24,000 nucleotides of DNA from an uncultured Peptostreptococcaceae bacterium (GCA_947283485.1 CAMYOU010000004.1:880-24879), one strand, 5' to 3'. Numbered from the stretch's first letter, positions 407-21,028 are shown. Numbers and translations: made by a program. Notes: generated by a model from the sequence alone, not told the origin.

Positions 407-592
407 TTATCTGATGAAGATACGACTCACGAGATAGAGGATCCCGAAGATCGCAAGGATGACCGGTAAGACCACCGTCATCGCCGCAAGAAACATGGCG
501 AAATAATCCTTCACCGAAAAATCATTCTCGAGAATTTTCTTTCGCTTTTCCTCCAAGTCGCGTTCTCGAAGTTCTCTTGTCTCACGCTTCAT
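407..592 (-). CDS. Small single-pass membrane protein (about 61-64 aa), hypothetical, last cistron of the opp operon
   Basis: The product is MKRETRELRERDLEEKRKKILENDFSVKDYFAMFLAAMTVVLPVILAIFGILYLVSRIFIR: a charged N-terminal half and one clear hydrophobic helix. The ATG at 592 overlaps the oppF stop by 11 nt, and the track's alternative TTG start is at 601. A terminator follows immediately. There is no convincing Shine-Dalgarno, so the call is tentative. Confidence 0.4.
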   Translation of the reverse strand: MKRETRELRERDLEEKRKKILENDFSVKDYFAMFLAAMTVVLPVILAIFGILYLVSRIFIR

Positions 593-2147
593 CTTGTACA
601 AACGCTTCGTGTGCGCGTTTCGCTTCGTCTTCGTCCATGTCCATTAAATGGCATGCGACGAATCTTCCCGGACGAACTTCTTTGAAATCCGGCTCATAGG
701 TTTTGCAAATCTCCATCGCATGACGGCAGCGCGTGTGGAAACGGCAACCCGACGGCGGATTGACCGCAGACGGAATGTCGCCCTCGAGGATTTCGAGTTT
801 GGTCGCGTCCTGCTCCACGTCGGTACGCGGGATCGCCATGAGGAGTGCTTTCGTGTACGGATGCAAAGGCTCCTCGAAGAGTGCCTCCGTCTCCGACAGT
901 TCGACGAGATTGCCGAGGTACATAACGCCGATACGATCCGAGATGTATTTGACGACGGAAAGATCGTGCGTGATGAAGAGATACGTGAGATTGTTCTGTT
1001 CTCTGAGATCCTGCAAGAGGTTGATGATCTGTGACTGAATCGATACGTCGAGCGCACTTACGGCCTCATCGCAGACGATGAACTTCGGTTTCAGTGCAAG
1101 CGCACGCGCGATGCCGATACGTTGTCTCTGTCCGCCGGAGAACTGGTGCGGATAGCGATGGATGAAGTACGGTGCAAGACCGCAGTTTCCCATGACCTCT
1201 TGAATGTATTCGTTGTAGCCCTTTGCTTTTTCATTCTTGAAGATCTTATGCGCGACGACGCCCTCGCCGATGATCTGACCGACTGTCATACGCGTATTGA
1301 GTGATGAATACGGGTCTTGGAAGATGATCTGCAGATCATTGCGCAGTTTTCTCATCTCTTCTTTCGTGAGTTGCGCAAGATCGATCCCCGTGTCCCGCAT
1401 GGACTCATAGTGTTCATAACGCGGTTCGTCTTTTACTTCCTCGCGCAGTTTCGCAAGCACGGTTTCTTTTTCTTTCGCGTCTCGTTCGTGCGTTACTCTC
1501 CCGGCTTCAATTTTCGCGATTTCATCGCGAAATGATTTTCGCTCGTCGTCCGTAAGCGTCGGATTCTCCAGATTCTTTTCGATCTCGATGATCTTCGCGT
1601 TCTCATTCGCAATGCGCACAAGAGCTTCGTAGTATTCCATGAGTGCCTTCGAGACGCTCGCGAGATCCTTATGAACGAGAAGACCTCCTGCGATGCGCGC
1701 CATATTGAGATATTTGTTCTCGAGTGCGCGGGTTTTGAGCATAATCTCTTCGTCAAGTGCCAGTGCTTCTTCGTCGGTCGCCTTCTCGCGACGCGCTTTG
1801 AGCTCGATGAGCTCTTTTTCCGCCGCTTCGTACGCCGAAAATTTCGATGGAATTTCACGGATGACCGTGGACACATATTTCGGTGCCATCTCGGCAAAGG
1901 TATTGCCGTAATAGAGCGTGGAACCTTCCGTTTGATCGTAGAGCTGGATGAGCGTCCGTCCAAAGGTGGACTTCCCGCAACCCGACTCGCCGACGAGACC
2001 GAGGACTTCGCCCTCGTAGATGTCGAGCGAAATATTCTCGTTCGCGTGTACGTATTTTTGCGCACCGCCATGGAAGAGATTTTTCTTACCGACCGGGAAA
2101 TATTTGCGCAGGTTCGTCACGCGCATGAGGACTTTTTTATTCTCCAC
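582..2147 (-). CDS. oppF: Oligopeptide/dipeptide ABC transporter ATP-binding protein (OppF/DppF type) with a large internal insertion
   Basis: Motifs seen: Walker A GESGCGKST, Q-loop region IIFQDPYSSLN, signature FSGGQRQRIGIARAL, Walker B FIVCDEAVSALD, H-loop ITHDLS, and a Cys-containing C-terminal oligopeptide-transporter tail. The GTG start overlaps the oppD stop (GTGGAGAATAA) and is preceded by GGGGTGAG. The product is 521 aa, against roughly 320-340 aa as I recall for this family. Confidence 0.92.
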   Translation of the reverse strand: MENKKVLMRVTNLRKYFPVGKKNLFHGGAQKYVHANENISLDIYEGEVLGLVGESGCGKSTFGRTLIQLYDQTEGSTLYYGNTFAEMAPKYVSTVIREIPSKFSAYEAAEKELIELKARREKATDEEALALDEEIMLKTRALENKYLNMARIAGGLLVHKDLASVSKALMEYYEALVRIANENAKIIEIEKNLENPTLTDDERKSFRDEIAKIEAGRVTHERDAKEKETVLAKLREEVKDEPRYEHYESMRDTGIDLAQLTKEEMRKLRNDLQIIFQDPYSSLNTRMTVGQIIGEGVVAHKIFKNEKAKGYNEYIQEVMGNCGLAPYFIHRYPHQFSGGQRQRIGIARALALKPKFIVCDEAVSALDVSIQSQIINLLQDLREQNNLTYLFITHDLSVVKYISDRIGVMYLGNLVELSETEALFEEPLHPYTKALLMAIPRTDVEQDATKLEILEGDIPSAVNPPSGCRFHTRCRHAMEICKTYEPDFKEVRPGRFVACHLMDMDEDEAKRAHEAFVQDEA

Positions 2148-3138
2148 GGTTTCTCACCCCCTTCTCGGGATAGAAGCAACGGATCTCTTGCTTACCGTCG
2201 TTAAAACTCATAAGATCCGGGATTTCATTCTCGCATTTCTCCGTCGCGTAACGGCAACGAGGCGCAAAACGACACCCTTTCGGCAGATCGAACGGATGCG
2301 GAACGCTGCCCGGGATGGCGTTTAGACGTTTGTCTTTCGCCGTCGAGATGGACGGAATGCTCTCGAGAAGCGCTTCCGTGTAGGGATGCGAGTATTTCGT
2401 CATGCCCTCTCGGAAGATGAACTCGACCGGAGCGGATTCCACGACCTGACCGCAGTACATGACTGCGACATCGTCCGCCATCTGATTGATCACGCCGAGA
2501 TCGTGCGTGATAAACATGATCGACGCGTCGTGCGTATCCTTGAGCTCGTTCATGAGTTTGAGGATCTGGGCCTGAATCGTAACGTCGAGTGCCGTCGTCG
2601 GCTCGTCCGCAATGAGGAGCTTCGGCTCGCATGCCAGTGCCATCGCAATCATGACGCGCTGGTTCATACCGCCCGATAGCTGGAACGGATATTGTTTCAC
2701 GACGACGTGCGGATTCGGAATCTTGACCATGGCGAGGAGTTCCTCCGAGCGCTTCGCCGCTTCTTTTTTCGAAAGTTTTTGGTGCAGCATGAGCACTTCC
2801 GAGAGTTGCTTCTCCACCGTAAAGACCGGGTTCAGAGAAGTCATCGGCTCCTGGAAGATAAAAGAGATGTCGTTTCCGCGAACGTGTTGAAGCCTACGCT
2901 CGTCGAAGTCCGAAATTTTCTCGCCGTCAAACCAAATTTCACCTTCGTAGATCTTTTGGTTGCGTTCAAAAAGTTTTAAGATGCTCATCGCCGTCTGGCT
3001 CTTGCCGCTGCCCGACTCGCCGACAACACCAAGGGTCTTCCCCGCTTCGACTTTGAGCGACACGCCGTAGACGGCCTTAATAAGGCCTCTGCGCGTCTCA
3101 AAATACGTGTGTAGATCTTTGATTTCGAGTAATGCCAT
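2137..3138 (-). CDS. oppD: Oligopeptide/dipeptide ABC transporter ATP-binding protein (OppD/DppD type)
   Basis: Motifs seen: Walker A GESGSGKSQ, signature LSGGMNQRVMIAMAL, Walker B LLIADEPTTALD, H-loop ITHDLG, and a C-terminal tail with CRFAPRCRYATEKC...C. The start lies 6 nt after the oppC stop. Confidence 0.93.
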   Translation of the reverse strand: MALLEIKDLHTYFETRRGLIKAVYGVSLKVEAGKTLGVVGESGSGKSQTAMSILKLFERNQKIYEGEIWFDGEKISDFDERRLQHVRGNDISFIFQEPMTSLNPVFTVEKQLSEVLMLHQKLSKKEAAKRSEELLAMVKIPNPHVVVKQYPFQLSGGMNQRVMIAMALACEPKLLIADEPTTALDVTIQAQILKLMNELKDTHDASIMFITHDLGVINQMADDVAVMYCGQVVESAPVEFIFREGMTKYSHPYTEALLESIPSISTAKDKRLNAIPGSVPHPFDLPKGCRFAPRCRYATEKCENEIPDLMSFNDGKQEIRCFYPEKGVRNRGE

Positions 3139-3144
3139 CGTTGC

Positions 3145-5007
3145 CTACCTTTCTGCCGCTTTCGGGTCCATCGCATCTCTCAATGCGTCGCCGATGAGGT
3201 TGATCGTAAATGCGGCAAGAAATACTGCGAGTGCCGGATAGATCCATCTCCACCAATAAAGCTGCAATACTTCCGTCTTCTGCGCATTCGTAAGCATATT
3301 GCCCCAAGACGGATACGGAGCCTTGACGCCGAATCCGAGGAAAGAAAGCCCCGCCTCGGTGAGGAGGTTACCTGCATACCCGAGGGTGGCCTGTACGATG
3401 ACGATGGACAGGACGTTCGGCAAGATGTGATTGGCGATGATCTTTTTCTCACGCAATCCCAATGCACGCGCAGCAAGGATATAGTCCTTCTCGCGCTCGG
3501 ATAGGATCTGACCGCGTACAAGACGCGCGATGCCTGTCCAGCCGAGGACACCCAGGATGACCATGACGAGTAAGAGTCGCTTGTTCTGACTCGTATCCGG
3601 TGGCAAAATGACCGTCAGCGTGATGATGAGCGGATAGAACGGGAACGACGCGATGATCTCCGTAAAACGTTGCAAGAGATTGTCGACCGTGCCGCCGTAG
3701 AAACCCGAGATCATGCCGATGACGACGCCGATGAAGACTTGGATGACGACGGCGACGAACGCGATTAAAAGCGTCACGCGACCGCCCGACAATAGTCTTG
3801 CAAAGAGATCGCGACCGACATCGTCCGTACCCATGATGTAGCCGTTGTTGCCCCATGTGTCGATCGTACCGTCTTCCTTGACGGCATAGTTTTGATAATA
3901 CCCGCTGAAGAGTTTCGCGTAGGAACCCTCCGGCGTGGTTTTCGTAACATCAAAGTAATTCTTACCCCAAGTGTAGATCTTGCCCGATTCGGTACGTGCG
4001 GTGAAATAATCGACACCCGCACCGATCTCCGCAACGGGAGCGTCGAAATCGGGAAGCGTGGTCGTCCCTTCCTGCGAAGCACCCCATACTCTGAGTTTGC
4101 CGTCTTCGCAGAGTGCAAGACAACTGTACGTGCCGATGGCAACTTGTTTCACTTTGATGCCGCCCGGCTCGAGTTCCTTAGGAATATTGTAGATCGGTGA
4201 ACCCTTTGCTCCGAAAATTTGAACGCCGCCGTCCTTACGGGCCGCGATAATATTGAGCGACGAGACGTCAAAGTCTTCGACATTGTTCTTGAGTTCTTTG
4301 GGCACGCGATCGAGATTGTTCGCCATCGTGGAACCCCACACGAGGAGATTCCCTTTCTCCGTTAAAATGACCGAGAACTGAACGCCCGCGTCCATTTTCT
4401 TGACACCTTCGGAGCGCGTCACCATGGAGACGTCGCCCGGAACCGTGTCCTGACCGAAGTAGTTGTTGCCCCAACCGTAGAAATTGCCTTTGTCCGTATG
4501 GACGAGCGTGTGTCTGTCGCCGACCGCGAGGTGAACGACCTTTTCTTCCTCGAGTTGTTTCTTGAACTTATCGGGCACGACCGTCGCACCGTCGTAGTCC
4601 TTGCCCCAGAAATAGAGTTTGCCGTCCGCATTGATGCCCGCGGAGAACGTGATTCCCGAGCGGATATCGACGATATCGGCATCCGTAAGATGCTTGGGAT
4701 AGTTCATATAGCCGAAGCCGGGTCCGATGTTCTTGAGAATTCCTTGAGAATAGTAGGGGTCATATTTCAAGATCCCCGCGCCGATCATAACCGTGAGAAA
4801 AATCGCCAAGAAACCCACAAGGCCGATCATGCCGATCGGATTGTGGAGATAGTTCTTGATGATCGTCTTTACAGGCGTCGTAATCGCTTCTTCCTCGAGT
4901 AGATTCTCGGGTGCCTTGCGATTCTTCGAAGCGCGGAATAGATCAATAAAACGCGTCCAGAAGTTTTTTCCGTAGCGACGCATCTTCTTTCCGTTGTTTT
5001 CGCTCAT
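3145..5007 (-). CDS. oppC: Oligopeptide ABC transporter permease (OppC/DppC type) carrying an inserted seven-repeat RCC1-like beta-propeller domain
   Basis: The C-terminal half is a normal OppC: the GTDDVGRDLFARLL motif before TM2, an EAA-type loop YILAARALGLREKKIIANHILPN, and multiple TM helices. The N-terminus has one TM helix (IGMIGLVGFLAIFLTVMIGAGIL). Between them are seven repeats ending in ..DG/KG.h..WG. The RBS is GGAGTAGGTGA. Confidence 0.9.
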   Translation of the reverse strand: MSENNGKKMRRYGKNFWTRFIDLFRASKNRKAPENLLEEEAITTPVKTIIKNYLHNPIGMIGLVGFLAIFLTVMIGAGILKYDPYYSQGILKNIGPGFGYMNYPKHLTDADIVDIRSGITFSAGINADGKLYFWGKDYDGATVVPDKFKKQLEEEKVVHLAVGDRHTLVHTDKGNFYGWGNNYFGQDTVPGDVSMVTRSEGVKKMDAGVQFSVILTEKGNLLVWGSTMANNLDRVPKELKNNVEDFDVSSLNIIAARKDGGVQIFGAKGSPIYNIPKELEPGGIKVKQVAIGTYSCLALCEDGKLRVWGASQEGTTTLPDFDAPVAEIGAGVDYFTARTESGKIYTWGKNYFDVTKTTPEGSYAKLFSGYYQNYAVKEDGTIDTWGNNGYIMGTDDVGRDLFARLLSGGRVTLLIAFVAVVIQVFIGVVIGMISGFYGGTVDNLLQRFTEIIASFPFYPLIITLTVILPPDTSQNKRLLLVMVILGVLGWTGIARLVRGQILSEREKDYILAARALGLREKKIIANHILPNVLSIVIVQATLGYAGNLLTEAGLSFLGFGVKAPYPSWGNMLTNAQKTEVLQLYWWRWIYPALAVFLAAFTINLIGDALRDAMDPKAAER

Positions 5008-5015
5008 GATTTCAC

Positions 5016-5999
5016 CTACTCCAGTCGTATTCTCGGATCGACCAGCGCATAGCCGAGATCCGCTAAGAGATTGCCGAGGACATTCAAGAGTGCATATAAC
5101 ATATTGAGTGCCATGACGACATTGTAATCCTGTTGCATGACGCTCTCGATAAAGACTTTGCCGATTCCGTTATAGGCAAAAATCGTCTCCGTGATGGCGG
5201 CACCGCTGAACATGCCGACGATCGCCCACGCAAGAACCGTGACGACCGGAATCATCGCATTGCGAAACGCATGCGTATAGATGACGACTTTTTCCGAGAG
5301 ACCTTTGGAACGTGCCGTACGAATATAGTCCTGAGAAAGGGCGTCGATCATCGCATTGCGCACATAACGGCTCGTCGCCGCAAGCGCACCGACGGTGATC
5401 GTCGTTGCCGGCAGGATGAGATGCTGGATCCAACGAAGGAAAATCTGACCTTTCGTGAGTCCCACCGTAATCGGCATCATGCCCGCGGGGAGCCAACCGA
5501 GATGGAAGGCGAAGAAGAAAATGAGCATAAGACCGATGAAGAACGTCGGCAAGGAAATGCCGATGAGAGAAAAGATCTGCCAAAAACGATCGTACAATCC
5601 GCCGCGTTTGACCGCAGATTTGATACCGATGATGACGGAAAGAATAAAAGCGATGATGGTCGATCCGAGATTGAGATAAAAAGTATTGCGTAGCGGTTCT
5701 GCGAGAACCTGTTGAACCGGTTTGAAGTGAATCGAACTCTCTCCGAGTTCACCTTTGGCAACGCGACCGAGCCAGCGCACATATTGCACCGGAACGGGTT
5801 TGTCGTATCCGAGGTTCTTCTTGATTTGATTGTACATCGCTTGTTTTTGCGCCGGTGAGCGGAACGCGGATGGGTTCTGGGGGAGCATCGCCAGCACCGG
5901 ATCTCCGGGCATCGCCTTCAAAAGGCCGAAGAGCACCATCGAGATGATGAGGACGACCGGGATGAGGTGCAGGATGCGCTTCAGAATGTACTTGAGCAT
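5016..5999 (-). CDS. oppB: Oligopeptide ABC transporter permease (OppB/DppB type)
   Basis: The N-terminus MLKYILKRILHLIPVVLIIS is typical. An EAA-type loop YIRTARSKGLSEKVVIYTHAFRNA is present and the protein has six or more hydrophobic segments. The RBS is AAAGGAAG. Confidence 0.93.
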   Translation of the reverse strand: MLKYILKRILHLIPVVLIISMVLFGLLKAMPGDPVLAMLPQNPSAFRSPAQKQAMYNQIKKNLGYDKPVPVQYVRWLGRVAKGELGESSIHFKPVQQVLAEPLRNTFYLNLGSTIIAFILSVIIGIKSAVKRGGLYDRFWQIFSLIGISLPTFFIGLMLIFFFAFHLGWLPAGMMPITVGLTKGQIFLRWIQHLILPATTITVGALAATSRYVRNAMIDALSQDYIRTARSKGLSEKVVIYTHAFRNAMIPVVTVLAWAIVGMFSGAAITETIFAYNGIGKVFIESVMQQDYNVVMALNMLYALLNVLGNLLADLGYALVDPRIRLE

Positions 6000-6066
6000 G
6001 TGAAACTTCCTTTCTCATTTATTCTTCGGGGGTTTACCCGAGTGCTGCTTCCGAACTTTCGCAACA

Positions 6067-6120
6067 AAGAGGAAACTCGGCTCCTCTTTTTGCGAAAGCA
6101 CGGAAAAATATTTTCCGTGC
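6067..6120 (-). promoter_or_regulatory. Two further intercistronic hairpins in the oppA-oppB spacer
   Basis: 6098..6120 is GCACGGAAAA-ata-TTTTCCGTGC, a perfect 10-bp inverted repeat. 6067..6089 is AAAGAGGA-aactcggc-TCCTCTTT, an 8-bp stem. Their function (mRNA stability, processing or attenuation) is not determinable from sequence. Confidence 0.35.
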
Positions 6121-6125
6121 TTCAT

Positions 6126-6168
6126 AAAAAAAGGGAAGTAGGAGTGAAGCGAACGCCTCACTCCTTCC
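6126..6168 (-). terminator. Intra-operon rho-independent terminator/attenuator directly after oppA
   Basis: The minus strand reads GGAA-GGAGTGAGGC-gttc-GCTTCACTCC-tac-TTCC-CTTTTTTTAT: a 10-bp stem with one G-U wobble and a tetraloop, extended by 4 bp across a 3-nt bulge, then a 7-T run. It sits 8 nt after the oppA stop. I found no convincing promoter between it and oppB. Confidence 0.55.
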
Positions 6169-6175
6169 TTCAGAG

Positions 6176-8311
6176 CTATTTTGCAATCGTGAGGTTGACG
6201 ATATCTTGCGACCAATCCCAGAACGGAGTCGTTTGTAGACCTTGTACGCGATTGGTGTGGATGTCGAAGTACTCATTGGAGTAGATCGGAATCTCCGGTA
6301 GATAATCGTTGAACCACATTTGGAAATCAAACCATTTGTCGGCAAACTCTTCCGGTTTGTCCGCAGGCGTCTTTCTCATCGCCATGATGATTTCGTCTGC
6401 CTTCGGATCGTTGACGCGGTCGAGGTTGTTGTTGCCGATTTGGCTCGAATGGAATTCCGTATACGGGTCGATAACGGGCGTGAAGCTCGTTGCGAGCGAG
6501 AATGCGACATAGTCGGGTTTCTCAACGTTCGGATTGTAGAGTTTCTCGAGCAGGGTGTTGAAGTCGACGTCGACGACATTGTATTGGATGCCGGCGAGTT
6601 TGCCGTTCTTCGTAAGCTCGGATGCGATGACTTCACCGACATTCTTTGCTGCTGCTGCGTGGTTGATGAGCAGTTTCTCACCCTTTTCGTTGTATCTCCA
6701 ATAATCGAAACCTTCGGAATTGGATTCAACCATTTGTTGAGCTTTGGCAGCATCCCACGGAGTCGAGCCGTCTTTTTCAAACTTATAGGGCGTTTGATTG
6801 AGGAGTTCATTTGCATGGTCGACATTGAGGGTGTAAGCGGTAAGTTTCTCATCGAGTTGATCCGCTTTTTCCTGTGCCGTCCATTGTGCAAGTCCGTAGT
6901 AGCCGTTGAGAACCGCACCGTATCCGCCGAGGATGTTCTGGATGAAGATGTTTCTGTCCATGAGGCAAGCAATCGCTTGACGAACTTCCTTATACTTGAC
7001 GGGGCCGAGATCCGTGAGGAAACGGATCATGCCGAAGCCGTTACGTTTGTAGCTTACAGCAGTGACTTTGTCGCTATTCTGTTTTGCTTTTTCAATCTTC
7101 GAGCCTTCGATCACGCCCCAAGCGATATCGACATCACCCGAGATTGCAAGGTCTACGTCGAGCTCTTGGTTGACTTCGCGTTGAACGATGTTCTTAATGG
7201 TTGCTTTTCTACCTGCATAGTCGCCGAGGTAATCCGGGTTGAGCTCGAGGGTTGCCGTTTGGTTCTCAAAGCTTACAAGATTGTAAGGACCTGCGGTGAC
7301 ATCGGGTTTGAAGCGGTAGTTGTTGACAACGTCAAGTGCCGCATTCGTAACGACGACGTTGAGGACATCGAGATTCTCGAGATTGTCAAGGTCAGCTTGG
7401 AAGCCGGCTTTGAGTGCATCGTATTTCTCGTTGGTCTTCTTGACTTCGGCATCGTATTCGCTGCCATAGTCTTCTTTTTCAGCTTCCATTTGATCAAGTT
7501 CCGCCTTGCGGTCTTCTTCGACTTTGGTAAGCTCGTCTTCAAGACCTTTCTTGAGGGCTGCTTTGTCGGCATCACTTACTTCATAGCCTTCTTTGACCAT
7601 GAGGGACGATCCGTCAGCGCCTACTGCAAGGTTCGGTGCCCATCTGTGCATCGGAGCCGGATTGGTTGCGACGAAGGATTGTTCGAAGAAGTACGGAAGC
7701 TTCTCCGCATCGATCGTAAGCTCGAACGTGTGCTCATCTACGACTTTGACGCCGGGGAAGCTTGTGCTTTCACCGTTTCTGTAAGCGTCATAGCCTTTGA
7801 GATCTTGTCCCGGAGTGTCCTTGTATCCGAGGCGGACAAATTCTTTTCTATTCTGGAATAGGTACCGTCCGACATAGTCCCATGCGGTGATGGGCTCGCC
7901 GTCGTTCCACTTGAGATCCGGATTGAGGAAGAATCTGTAGGTCTTGGAGCCGTCTTCATTCTCGGTGATTTCGGGTTCTTTGGCATTGGTGACCTTGCTG
8001 AGTTGGAATTGACCTGCTTCATCGGTGGAATACGTCGTGTAGCCGCCATCAGAATAGAAGCCGATCAGTCTCTTGATCTGAACGTCATACGCCGAGTTCG
8101 TGAACCCGTCGATGAAGTCGCCGTTCATCTTCGCGGGAGATGCTACAACGAGGGTATCCGCATCTTGAGATGCAGCCGGTTGTACGCTCTCGGAAGATTC
8201 GCCGGTTGCCGTTTCACCGGACTGAGCCGGTGCCGGACTCTGCCCGCAAGCTGCCACGATGACCATGAGGGCCACGAGCAGGAGGGCAAGAAGTTTCTTT
8301 GATTTGAACAC
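6176..8311 (-). CDS. oppA: Peptide ABC transporter substrate-binding lipoprotein (family 5, OppA-like), oversized
   Basis: The signal peptide MFKSKKLLALLLVALMVIVAAC has a lipobox V-A-A-C (Cys22), followed by a Ser/Ala/Glu-rich linker. The body resembles the family-5 SBP fold by eye, on general composition and length rather than a named motif. The start is GTG with RBS GGAGG 6 nt upstream. It is the first gene of the opp cluster, 711 aa. Confidence 0.88.
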   Translation of the reverse strand: MFKSKKLLALLLVALMVIVAACGQSPAPAQSGETATGESSESVQPAASQDADTLVVASPAKMNGDFIDGFTNSAYDVQIKRLIGFYSDGGYTTYSTDEAGQFQLSKVTNAKEPEITENEDGSKTYRFFLNPDLKWNDGEPITAWDYVGRYLFQNRKEFVRLGYKDTPGQDLKGYDAYRNGESTSFPGVKVVDEHTFELTIDAEKLPYFFEQSFVATNPAPMHRWAPNLAVGADGSSLMVKEGYEVSDADKAALKKGLEDELTKVEEDRKAELDQMEAEKEDYGSEYDAEVKKTNEKYDALKAGFQADLDNLENLDVLNVVVTNAALDVVNNYRFKPDVTAGPYNLVSFENQTATLELNPDYLGDYAGRKATIKNIVQREVNQELDVDLAISGDVDIAWGVIEGSKIEKAKQNSDKVTAVSYKRNGFGMIRFLTDLGPVKYKEVRQAIACLMDRNIFIQNILGGYGAVLNGYYGLAQWTAQEKADQLDEKLTAYTLNVDHANELLNQTPYKFEKDGSTPWDAAKAQQMVESNSEGFDYWRYNEKGEKLLINHAAAAKNVGEVIASELTKNGKLAGIQYNVVDVDFNTLLEKLYNPNVEKPDYVAFSLATSFTPVIDPYTEFHSSQIGNNNLDRVNDPKADEIIMAMRKTPADKPEEFADKWFDFQMWFNDYLPEIPIYSNEYFDIHTNRVQGLQTTPFWDWSQDIVNLTIAK

Positions 8312-8353: not shown

Positions 8354-8382
8354 AGTATATCGGCTTGTCGAAGAGATGTCAA
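8354..8382 (-). promoter_or_regulatory. Sigma-70-type promoter of the opp operon
   Basis: The minus strand reads TTGACA (8382..8377), a 17-nt spacer, then TATACT (8359..8354). This lies about 45 nt upstream of the oppA GTG. Confidence 0.6.
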
Positions 8383-19880: not shown

Positions 19881-19903
19881 CAATGCTCAGTTCTCCGGAA
19901 ACG

Positions 19904-19932
19904 CTGATTTTCTCATTCATTTCTGTTACAAT
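19904..19932 (+). promoter_or_regulatory. Divergent promoter for the AlaX-like/ychF unit
   Basis: TGtTACAAT gives an extended -10 (19924..19932). The -35 is weak: CTGATT at a 17-nt spacing. It lies about 20 nt upstream of the ATG at 19952. Confidence 0.4.
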
Positions 19933-19951
19933 TGGACAAAAGGAGGCTTCC

Positions 19952-21028
19952 ATGGATCATCTCTATCTCGACAATCCCTATCTTCGCAAAATTCGCGCCA
20001 ATATCATCGAACAGACGCAGAGCAACGAAGGTGTTCATATTGTACTCGACAAGACCGTCTTTCGTCCCGGCGAGATCGGCACCATCGACGGCGAGAACGT
20101 CATCGCCGTCTTCACGGATCAGGACAAGATCATCCACCGTGTCGCCGCAAGAATCCCCGGACCCGAAGTGACCGTGGAAGTGGATGAGCGTTCCCGCGCG
20201 CAGATGCTCGCGAATCGCACCGCCAGTGCCATCATTGAGGGACTCTTACGCCGTATCTATGCCGCCGAAGTGGAAAAAATTGAATTTGACCTCAAGCGCG
20301 GCTTTACGATGATCCTCAAGGGGACTGAATACATCGACGATGATTTTCACATCCTCGTGTCCCTCTCCAACGCCATCGTGCGAAATGCCGTGGCGACGCG
20401 CATCTATACGGAAAAGGGCACGCGCATGCTCGAGATCCCGACGCTCCCTCCCATGCCTTGGAGCGAATCCGTCGCGGATAATACCGGCGAAGTCGGCGGC
20501 ATTGCACTCAATGTGAACCGCGACGAAGACGGCGTTTCGTTCACCGTCATCGCCGGAGCAGAATACGAGCGTCTCACCTCCGAGTGGCTCGCGCGTCTCG
20601 GCGACGAACGCGATATCGACGAAGTCTTTTCGAAAGTCCTCTCCTGGGAAAGTGCCGTGAAGAAAGGCGCGGAAGAAAACGCCCGACTCACGAAAGAAGT
20701 CGCCCATCTTCGGCGCGAGATCCTCACGAAAGCCAAGAGTGCCTATCGCGGACTCGTCTTTGTGAAGCATCATTTTGACACCCCCGTCGAAAGTCTCGCA
20801 GAGCTTGCCGACAGAAGCGGCGACGTCTTCCTCTTGTCCGAATCCGGCGGCAAAGTCTACATCCGCGTGAAAGACAAACGACTCTCACCCAAGACCTTTA
20901 TGAATCTTTTTCAGACCTATACCGACACGCCCCCTGCGGAAGTCTATCTCTACGAGGGCACCGCAAAAGAGCCGGAGGAGTTCTTGGAAAATCTCTACGA
21001 AGCCATGAAGAAAAAATTAAGAGGCTAG
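19952..21028 (+). CDS. AlaX-L-like protein (alanyl-tRNA-synthetase-related N-terminal barrel, editing-like core and DHHA1-like tail) apparently lacking the zinc-binding histidines
   Basis: I place the start at ATG 19952, with GGAGG 6 nt upstream; the track's 19883 start has no RBS. The N-terminus MDHLYLDNPYLRKIRANIIEQTQSNEGVHIVLDKTVFRPGEIGTIDGENV resembles, from my memory of the family, the AlaX/AlaRS-C pattern (LYyeDpYlkef.a.V......g...vvLDkT.FyP.gGGQp.D.G.I.g). The C-terminal ...LLSESGGKVYIRVKDKRLS is DHHA1-like. Confidence 0.55.
   Translation: MDHLYLDNPYLRKIRANIIEQTQSNEGVHIVLDKTVFRPGEIGTIDGENVIAVFTDQDKIIHRVAARIPGPEVTVEVDERSRAQMLANRTASAIIEGLLRRIYAAEVEKIEFDLKRGFTMILKGTEYIDDDFHILVSLSNAIVRNAVATRIYTEKGTRMLEIPTLPPMPWSESVADNTGEVGGIALNVNRDEDGVSFTVIAGAEYERLTSEWLARLGDERDIDEVFSKVLSWESAVKKGAEENARLTKEVAHLRREILTKAKSAYRGLVFVKHHFDTPVESLAELADRSGDVFLLSESGGKVYIRVKDKRLSPKTFMNLFQTYTDTPPAEVYLYEGTAKEPEEFLENLYEAMKKKLRG

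Follow-up and report, generated by a model that had tools for sequence, protein, structure and literature searches.

Type I ATP-binding cassette (ABC) importers are well understood, and the periplasmic loops of their transmembrane domains (TMDs) are normally short. Their OppC/DppC permeases, as typified by E. coli OppC (PDB: 8z21_B) and DppC (PDB: 8z1v_B), M. tuberculosis OppC (PDB: 8j5q_C), and the S. aureus-type Opp4C (NF045476), are proteins of ~280-300 residues in which a loop of about 25-30 residues links the first and second transmembrane helices (TM1 and TM2). Here we describe an OppC permease encoded in a 24,000-nucleotide stretch of DNA (the window) from an uncultured Peptostreptococcaceae bacterium (GCA_947283485.1, CAMYOU010000004.1:880-24879). 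This protein shares with the above versions TM1, the GTDxxGRD motif, the five-helix BPD_transp_1 core and the coupling loop, as well as the operon partners OppA, OppB, OppD, and OppF, with four-cysteine C-terminal motifs in OppD and OppF, but it contains an insert of ~300 residues between TM1 and TM2. We regard this as almost certainly a real and vertically conserved domain insertion, namely a β-propeller of ~280 residues of the BLIP-II/RCC1_2 type placed in the extracytoplasmic TM1-TM2 loop of an oligopeptide-type (PepT family, type I) ABC importer.

One well-studied exception to the general shortness of these loops, the P2 domain of MalF, altered the understanding of how binding proteins dock. 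In the E. coli MalFGK2-MalE system MalF-P2 is reportedly a large folded domain in a periplasmic loop of a type I importer TMD, placed so as to contact docked MalE. The OppC insert is comparable in being a folded domain in a TMD loop, and the comparison is one of functional analogy only: MalF-P2 belongs to a CUT1 importer, occupies the TM3-TM4 loop and is an immunoglobulin-like domain of ~180 residues, whereas the present domain belongs to a PepT importer, occupies the TM1-TM2 loop and is a propeller of ~280 residues. As both the fold and the loop differ, homology between the two is not supported. Furthermore, the contact of MalF-P2 with the substrate-binding protein (SBP) has been demonstrated, whereas that of the OppC propeller is only inferred. 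Extracytoplasmic soluble domains fused to the TMD of an ABC importer are also found in OpuA and GlnPQ of Gram-positive bacteria; there, it is the SBP itself that is fused, and at a terminus, whereas in the present system the SBP is a separate lipoprotein and the propeller lies inside a loop. An earlier reading of this DNA, made from the sequence alone (the sequence-only reading), was aware of no characterised ABC importer permease with a propeller in a periplasmic loop, and the literature that we searched likewise offered no description of an RCC1 domain or β-propeller joined with OppC, a permease or BPD_transp_1. The architecture is real, conserved and uncharacterised, and its sequences are already present in NCBI and UniRef under a generic name.

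The OppC permease and its inserted propeller

The gene, oppC-RCC1, is a single open reading frame (ORF) on the minus strand (3145..5007) encoding 620 residues, with Pfam matches to BPD_transp_1, RCC1_2 and OppC_N; set against the canonical ~280-300 residues, this bears out the statement of the sequence-only reading that the protein is about twice the usual length. All its parts are given below with their minus-strand coordinates. A K/R-rich cytoplasmic N-terminus and TM1 (residues 1-84; 4756..5007) are marked by the OppC_N match and by a helix at residues 57-79 in a model obtained with AlphaFold2 (AF2). The linker that leads from TM1 to the first blade (residues 85-109; 4681..4755) has the conserved form PYYSQGxLKNIxPGxGYM and a predicted local distance difference test score (pLDDT) of 84-90. 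The seven-bladed propeller of RCC1_2/BLIP-II type, predicted to be extracytoplasmic, spans residues 110-390 (3838..4680), as delineated by Pfam, a hidden Markov model (HMM) of the blades, the AF2 model and Foldseek. Directly after blade 7 comes the pre-TM2 motif GTDDVGRD (residues 393-400; 3808..3831), at which the alignments with canonical OppC/DppC begin; the insert thus lies between TM1 and this motif, where it had originally been placed. The remainder (residues 401-620; 3148..3807) forms the permease core of TM2-TM6 with the coupling loop at ~508-520, as indicated by BPD_transp_1 and Foldseek.

The membrane-embedded portion is that of an OppC/DppC family permease by every family-level sequence and fold criterion tested. 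BPD_transp_1 (PF00528) matches residues 427-617 with E=2e-32 and 112.9 bits against a cutoff of 26.4. OppC_N, at residues 45-87, scores 21.2 bits, slightly under its cutoff of 23.9, and reaches 36-49 bits in other members of the propeller-OppC family; hence, of the profile matches anticipated by the sequence-only reading, RCC1_2 and BPD_transp_1 were recovered and OppC_N fell just short. The membrane part superposes on E. coli OppC (8z21_B) with a root-mean-square deviation (rmsd) of 1.9 Å at 39% identity in Foldseek, and over residues ~385-617 the canonical OppC/DppC proteins as a group show 36-39% identity and 1.9-3.5 Å rmsd. The coupling (EAA-equivalent) loop reads 'AARALGLREKKIIANHILPN'. 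Residues ~385-617 are the only part covered by the NCBIfam models of OppC, DppC and NikC and by the OppC/DppC sequences of E. coli and M. tuberculosis in the PDB, which identifies the ~300 residues as an insertion relative to the canonical OppC of ~300 residues. The best NCBIfam match is to Opp4C (residues 387-616), at 318 bits against an equivalog cutoff of 350, with the other models far below their cutoffs. As no equivalog cutoff is reached, a substrate is not assignable by this means; support for peptide transport is indirect, and comes from the likeness of the modelled OppA to the oligopeptide binders AppA and L. lactis OppA.

The range flagged in the sequence-only reading (3838..4764) corresponds to residues 82-390. 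Within it, RCC1_2 (PF13540) is detected in four stretches with E=2e-33 and 113.7 bits against a cutoff of 22, and WD40_RLD (PF25390) scores E=1.5e-38 and 133.5 bits, under its gathering cutoff of 150. The blade HMM, built from the propeller-OppC family, finds exactly seven matches in the protein: blade 1 at residues 111-137 (4597-4677), blade 2 at 155-182 (4462-4545), blade 3 at 200-227 (4327-4410), blade 4 at 242-267 (4207-4284), blade 5 at 285-310 (4078-4155), blade 6 at 324-350 (3958-4038) and blade 7 at 362-388 (3844-3924), the last ending five residues before GTDDVGRD. Register was consistent blade by blade, with a pattern of strand, turn, strand, xDG, strand with WG and a downstream P repeated seven times at a period of 38-45 residues. 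The AF2 model, computed from a 60-sequence multiple sequence alignment, has a mean pLDDT of 83.7 and a predicted template modelling score (pTM) of 0.75, with the propeller blocks at 89-95, and its DSSP assignment comprises seven sets of three strands (112-135, 157-180, 202-225, 243-266, 286-309, 325-348 and 363-386).

The top PDB fold match of the insert in Foldseek is BLIP-II (PDB: 3qi0_A), which is covered over its whole 268 residues with TMt 0.87, 2.3 Å rmsd and 27% identity; it is followed by the E. coli DppC/OppC and M. tuberculosis OppC cores, and then by UVR8, RPGR, HERC1/2, RCC1 and the ACR4 ectodomain. Sequence matches of the insert in the PDB (phmmer) are to HERC2, BLIP-II, RPGR and UVR8 at 1e-16 to 1e-13, and the propeller match as a whole is far beyond chance. 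All seven RCC1-type repeats quoted in the sequence-only reading are present where it had located them, and its suggestion that seven blades would close a propeller is upheld by Pfam, by the seven three-stranded sets of the AF2 model, by the superposition on BLIP-II and by the seven blade-HMM matches, so that residues 110-390 have both profile and structural counterparts. In this predicted structure the seven blades form a closed ring. Since the blades are 38-45 residues long and WD40_RLD remains below its cutoff, the insert is a compact, short-bladed propeller of the RCC1_2/BLIP-II type and not a eukaryotic-type RCC1 domain, in which blades are ~50 residues long. Ran guanine-nucleotide exchange activity would be implausible for a domain outside the cell.

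BLIP-II of Streptomyces exfoliatus (PDB: 1jtd, 3qi0, 3qhy) is thus the nearest described relative in terms of fold: it likewise consists of seven blades of ~40 residues, is bacterial and is extracytoplasmic, and its blades are reportedly three-stranded, as are those seen here. It is, however, a free secreted binder of class A β-lactamases, whereas the present propeller is embedded within the chain of a polytopic membrane protein, with no indication of β-lactamase binding. The 'CRINKLY' ectodomain of ACR4 (PDB: 7a0j; TMt 0.73 in Foldseek) is comparable in being a seven-bladed RCC1-like propeller that forms the extracellular part of a membrane protein, but ACR4 is a eukaryotic single-pass plant receptor kinase with the propeller as its N-terminal ectodomain rather than as a loop insertion, and is unrelated to transport.

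With respect to topology, residues 1-56 contain 12 K/R residues, and the sole hydrophobic stretch preceding residue 401 is that of TM1 (53-82), none being found within residues 83-400. The solved E. coli DppBCDF and DppABCDF structures have six TM helices per TMD and a periplasmic TM1-TM2 region (PMC12136057). With the TM assignments taken from the AF2 helices, the parity is fixed by the coupling loop (~508-520), which must be cytoplasmic. The K/R-rich N-terminus, the homology to the solved DppB/DppC and OppC proteins and the parity of the helices therefore agree with the original placement of the propeller outside the cell, an inference rather than a measurement.

Distribution and conservation of the fusion

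A search of 5.8 billion proteins recovered more than 120 clusters (at 90% identity) of proteins of 586-671 residues that combine RCC1_2 with BPD_transp_1, with identities of 48-94%. Among the named sources are Anaerococcus spp., Ndongobacter massiliensis, Peptoniphilaceae, Tissierellia, Lachnospiraceae, Saccharofermentanales and Eubacteriales, and every cluster is annotated only as 'ABC transporter permease subunit'. Overall, the design is shared by hundreds of Gram-positive anaerobes. About 35 full-length fusion clusters are present among 1.8 billion representatives at 50% identity. A scan of GTDB species genomes with the full-length alignment as the query yielded 48 loci with a propeller OppC, which span Tissierellia, Clostridia, Erysipelotrichia and Mollicutes-like taxa; among them are Dielma fastidiosa, Erysipelothrix inopinata, Sellimonas intestinalis, Anaerosporobacter faecicola and Peloplasma aerotolerans, along with many metagenome-assembled genomes (MAGs) of Oscillospiraceae and Erysipelotrichaceae. 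Isolates with the fusion belong to Anaerococcus, Ndongobacter, Dielma, Erysipelothrix, Sellimonas and Peloplasma, and it is seen in long isolate contigs from A. marasmi (1.95 Mb) and N. massiliensis (1.86 Mb) and in the complete chromosome of E. inopinata DSM 15511.

These phyletic patterns bear directly on whether the insert might be an artefact of assembly or annotation, whether as a chimeric contig or as two genes joined by a sequencing error. The ORF is single and uninterrupted, more than 120 independent clusters share the architecture, as do long contigs from isolates and a complete chromosome, and AF2 yields one coherent molecule. Given this recurrence the fusion is not a chimeric assembly, and an artefactual origin, a concern raised already in the sequence-only reading, is exceedingly improbable; it was rejected. 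Apparent OppC inserts in two Staphylococcus/Bacillus loci (L067, L077) were also rejected, being tblastn matches that run into the paralogous oppB; in both, OppC has 297-302 residues, and OppA and OppF are normal.

Conservation within the family alignment is uneven. Mean identity to the query rises from 41% over the propeller to 57% over the linker between TM1 and the propeller and 70% over TMD residues 391-620. WG is invariant in blades 1, 2, 3, 5, 6 and 7, with FG in blade 4, and the prolines that follow the blades are also invariant. In the linker N93 and Y100 are invariant, and P96, G97 and P104 are conserved in at least 90% of sequences; in GTDDVGRD the invariant positions are G393, D395, G398 and R399.

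The operon and its partner proteins

The gene is part of a minus-strand operon, oppA-B-C-D-F (582..8311), followed by a small gene; its host is near certainly a monoderm Bacillota bacterium in which the operon is chromosomal. The order oppA(s)-oppB-oppC-oppD-oppF is retained in every one of the 48 propeller loci, and in those of Anaerococcus two to three tandem OppA paralogues share one translocator. The nearest canonical relatives, from Staphylococcus and Bacillus, have an OppC of 297-302 residues, an OppA of ~572 and an OppF of ~330.

OppA (6176..8311, minus strand) is a lipoprotein SBP of 711 residues that matches SBP_bac_5, has the lipobox VAAC in its translation and contains a two-helix hairpin. 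Its AF2 model (pLDDT 90.6) is that of a cluster-C SBP, with B. subtilis AppA and L. lactis OppA as the best fold matches. The hairpin insert is acidic and consists of antiparallel helices at 247-277 and 279-309; together with a third helix it makes up residues 247-332 (~7316..7573), modelled with high confidence, and from the helix length the arm may be ~45 Å long. The hairpin is present only in those OppAs of the clade that have 700 or more residues. OppAs of the clade range from 597 to 805 residues and are very acidic, with net charges of -3 to -100. The partner permease OppB (5016..5999, minus strand; 327 residues) matches BPD_transp_1, and its BPD_transp_1_N match at residues 1-84 indicates that the canonical N-terminal periplasmic region, which bears the scoop motif, is retained.

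Of the two ATPases, both of which have the oligo_HPY C-terminal domain, OppD (2137..3138, minus strand; 333 residues; ABC_tran and oligo_HPY) is of canonical length. OppF (582..2147, minus strand) has 521 residues as opposed to the usual ~330, with a charged insert of ~180 residues splitting the ABC domain, such that ABC_tran matches in two stretches, of which the second (residues 256-363) corresponds to profile positions 45-136; E. coli OppF (8z21_D) aligns only with residues 255-486. The insert occupies residues ~85-255 (~1383..1895), after the Walker A region and ahead of the 'IIFQDP' segment; its highly charged sequence looks helical or coiled-coil. Among 44 propeller loci, 37 have an OppF of at least 440 residues and the remaining seven, all Oscillospiraceae MAGs, one of normal length. 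The C-terminal regions of OppD and OppF each contain four cysteines in the arrangement C-x5-C-x6-C-x17/18-C (spacing 6/7/18-19), which is the pattern of the [4Fe-4S]-binding cysteines of E. coli DppD and DppF (PMC12136057). A further comparison is offered by the Opp system of Mollicutes (JCVI-syn MMSYN1_0166-0168), as OppF matches the 649-position mycoplasma OppF model NF043078 with E=4.7e-94 in three stretches; this splitting suggests that its insert lies at a place comparable to that in mycoplasma OppF, and Erysipelotrichia and Mollicutes-like genomes are also represented in the present clade. A propeller is, however, absent from the 307-position mycoplasma OppC model, and the equivalog cutoffs are not reached by the proteins described here.

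Directly after oppF lies an ORF (407..601, minus strand) for a single-pass membrane protein of 64 residues, with a charged N-terminal half, one C-terminal TM helix and the motif kD..AMflAAm..v.P ahead of the helix. It has no Pfam family. Its homologues have 59-74 residues and directly follow oppF in four loci (L001-L004), and an HMM built from six copies and run over 86 fetched loci detects it in 46, comprising 43 of the 48 propeller loci and three others (L048, L050, L052); it is found in none of the canonical Opp loci retrieved. This distribution suggests that it is probably an unannotated sixth subunit of this Opp clade. In the Mollicutes MAG locus L050 (PULR01000065.1, 1558..2592, plus strand), OppC has 344 residues, a TM1-TM2 loop of 25 residues and no propeller; its TMD is 52% identical, the small membrane protein gene is present and OppF is of normal length. 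L050 is thus a natural propeller-less comparator. We considered the propeller, the OppF insert and the small protein as an obligatory set and rejected this, given the seven propeller loci with normal OppF and the presence of the small protein without a propeller in L050.

Two putative regulatory elements accompany the minus-strand genes. A promoter-like site upstream of oppA, TTGACA-17-TATACT (8354..8382), agrees with the consensus at 11 of 12 positions, and an 11-bp GC-rich, terminator-like stem-loop (6140..6165) lies directly after the oppA stop codon in the 176-bp spacer between oppA and oppB; both are pattern matches only. The stem-loop is possibly an attenuator between the binding-protein and permease genes, and the two elements would be consistent with the binding protein being expressed more strongly than the translocator.

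Possible roles of the propeller and variants of the clade

Taken together, the above observations describe a whole clade of apparent peptide importers in which a protein-interaction propeller is built in beside the predicted docking site and occurs together with an insert in the ATPase and a small candidate membrane subunit that lacks annotation. The hosts are gut, skin and animal-associated anaerobes (Anaerococcus, Peptoniphilaceae, Erysipelotrichaceae, Lachnospiraceae, Oscillospiraceae). By analogy with MalF-P2, we tentatively favour, as a plausible rather than a probable role, that the propeller acts as a fixed extracytoplasmic platform for the docking and retention of OppA. The sequence-only reading had offered the docking or gating of OppA, the binding of glycopeptides and a second substrate-capture module as candidate functions. 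The propeller would be held by the short conserved linker on the TM1 side and by ~10 residues leading to TM2 on the other, and this mode of attachment suggests that it sits as a fixed platform at the rim of the OppBC surface, where the lipid-anchored OppA would land. So mounted, it might hold on to a single lobe of OppA or, where there are several OppA paralogues, of any one of them, so that OppA would be locally more concentrated and oriented above the translocation pore and the scoop motif of OppB. In a cell lacking an outer membrane, this could make the delivery of peptides and the SBP-dependent activation of the ATPase more efficient, with transport proper proceeding through the canonical alternating-access cycle of OppBCDF. 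In E. coli DppABCDF the SBP caps both TMDs, and the TM1-TM2 element of DppB (the scoop motif) enters the SBP cleft and seals the outward-facing cavity (PMC12136057). The OppC insert occupies the loop whose counterpart in the paralogous subunit DppB is this SBP-contacting element, and the linker is conserved above the level of the propeller (57% versus 41%). The RCC1-like propellers with solved structures that were retrieved are also protein-protein interaction modules (BLIP-II with β-lactamase, RPGR, UVR8, HERC2 and the ACR4 ectodomain).

Several observations weigh against such a docking role. Simple charge complementarity between propeller and OppA was considered and rejected, since both are mostly acidic (net charge -2 to -36 in the propellers and -3 to -100 in the OppAs). 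The OppA hairpin as the partner of the propeller is weakened by OppAs of ~600 residues that lack it and still pair with propeller OppCs. Across the 48 loci no OppA feature tracks the propeller universally, hairpin-free OppAs being found in Erysipelotrichaceae and Oscillospiraceae, and in the family alignment no blade-specific conserved patch is apparent, the conserved residues being the structural WG, GxxH and P. Finally, the existence of L050 as a clade member without the propeller suggests that the domain is dispensable for basic transport.

The propeller might instead bind something other than OppA, either an envelope polymer (teichoic acids or peptidoglycan stem peptides) or a protease or hydrolase that is secreted or anchored in the wall, thereby placing the importer where peptides or muropeptides arise and coupling extracellular degradation to uptake. 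We consider this fairly unlikely, yet it has the attraction that BLIP-II, to which the insert is closest among solved folds, is secreted by a bacterium and targets an enzyme outside the cytoplasm (a β-lactamase), and that the best non-OppC sequence relatives are giant multi-propeller proteins of 2000-7000 residues. The lower conservation of the propeller relative to the TMD (41% versus 70%) and the acceptance of nested domains of 300-420 residues in the inter-blade loops of some homologues are typical of outward-facing, adaptive surfaces, and the neighbouring genes sometimes encode an M3 oligoendopeptidase, an Amidase_5/choline-binding wall hydrolase or GlmS. These neighbours, however, vary between loci, no candidate partner gene is linked to the operon, and the top 50 fold matches include no lectin or peptidoglycan-binding propeller. 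In a more elaborate form, which we hold to be rather unlikely, the propeller would be a receptor for an external partner of its own (for instance a protease or hydrolase in the wall or outside the cell, a fragment of peptidoglycan, or a protein of the host or of a neighbouring cell), and together with the small subunit and the OppF insert would define a hitherto unrecognised six-component class of peptide importers in which external recognition is physically coupled to uptake or regulates it; were this so, the homologues with nested domains of 300-420 residues would be variants of different specificity.

β-propellers commonly bind small ligands in their central funnel, and the propeller could on this ground be a module for substrate handling. 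It might serve as a second receptor for peptides or glycopeptides that is independent of the SBP, or as a lid or gate against peptide escape that extends the role of the DppB scoop motif; either seems unlikely. The insert does lie at the periplasmic mouth, and the sealing of the DppABCDF cavity by a TM1-TM2 element matters for transport (PMC12136057). Nevertheless, an OppA gene is found at every locus, the scoop region of OppB is itself retained, no peptide-binding pocket is known in RCC1_2/BLIP-II propellers, and the family alignment reveals no conserved non-structural residues that would line a putative pocket. The propeller could also act structurally or in regulation with no specific ligand outside the cell, be it in the stabilisation or assembly of OppBC, oligomerisation, shielding from proteases or phages, or relaying an outside signal to the OppF insert and the small protein. 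Such a role would fit the combination of accessory parts in the clade (the small protein accompanies the propeller in 43 of 48 loci and the OppF insert in 37 of 44), and the one member without a propeller suggests a modulatory rather than an essential function. The parts are nonetheless separable, as shown by the seven propeller loci with normal OppF and by L050 with the small protein and no propeller, which makes an obligatory signalling axis unlikely, and a specific, selected function is favoured by the fact that Tissierellia, Clostridia, Erysipelotrichia and Mollicutes-like taxa have all kept the seven blades; we therefore judge a purely structural or regulatory role improbable.

Should the propeller hold OppA, as in the docking role favoured above, the clade would offer a natural system for studying the recruitment of lipid-anchored binding proteins in monoderm bacteria; should its ligand be a different one, that external partner would become linked to the uptake of peptides. 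As Opp systems take up nutrients, pheromones and muropeptides and also let peptide antibiotics into the cell, signalling, colonisation and drug uptake could all be affected by an accessory receptor domain.

Several variants of the permease illustrate the range of such insertions. Some OppC homologues (P0130, with 1142 residues; P0132, with 1072; P0137, P0147 and P0159; locus L086) have unannotated domains of 300-420 residues nested between seven recognisable blades, and the inter-blade loops around blades 2-5 tolerate insertions; P0147, with 11 blade matches, possibly has two propellers. In a further set of OppC-type permeases, of 588-781 residues (P0254, P0259, P0260, P0270 and P0268; locus L085), the TM1-TM2 insert is just as large but lacks RCC1 blades and, save for IF2_N repeats in P0268, any Pfam match, and P0260 adjoins an SBP of 847 residues. 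These large non-RCC1 inserts suggest that the TM1-TM2 loop of OppC is a general hot spot for accessory ectodomains. The best non-OppC matches to the propeller itself are in the aforementioned giant proteins (P0121, P0124, P0141, P0148 and others), which contain up to 31 RCC1_2-type stretches and are, on grounds of sequence similarity, a possible evolutionary source of the inserted domain. Elsewhere in the window, an ORF of 381 residues without a Pfam match (19883..21028, plus strand) is situated among housekeeping genes, those for HemW, LepA, two signal peptidases, HolA, ComEC, two ABC exporters and YchF.

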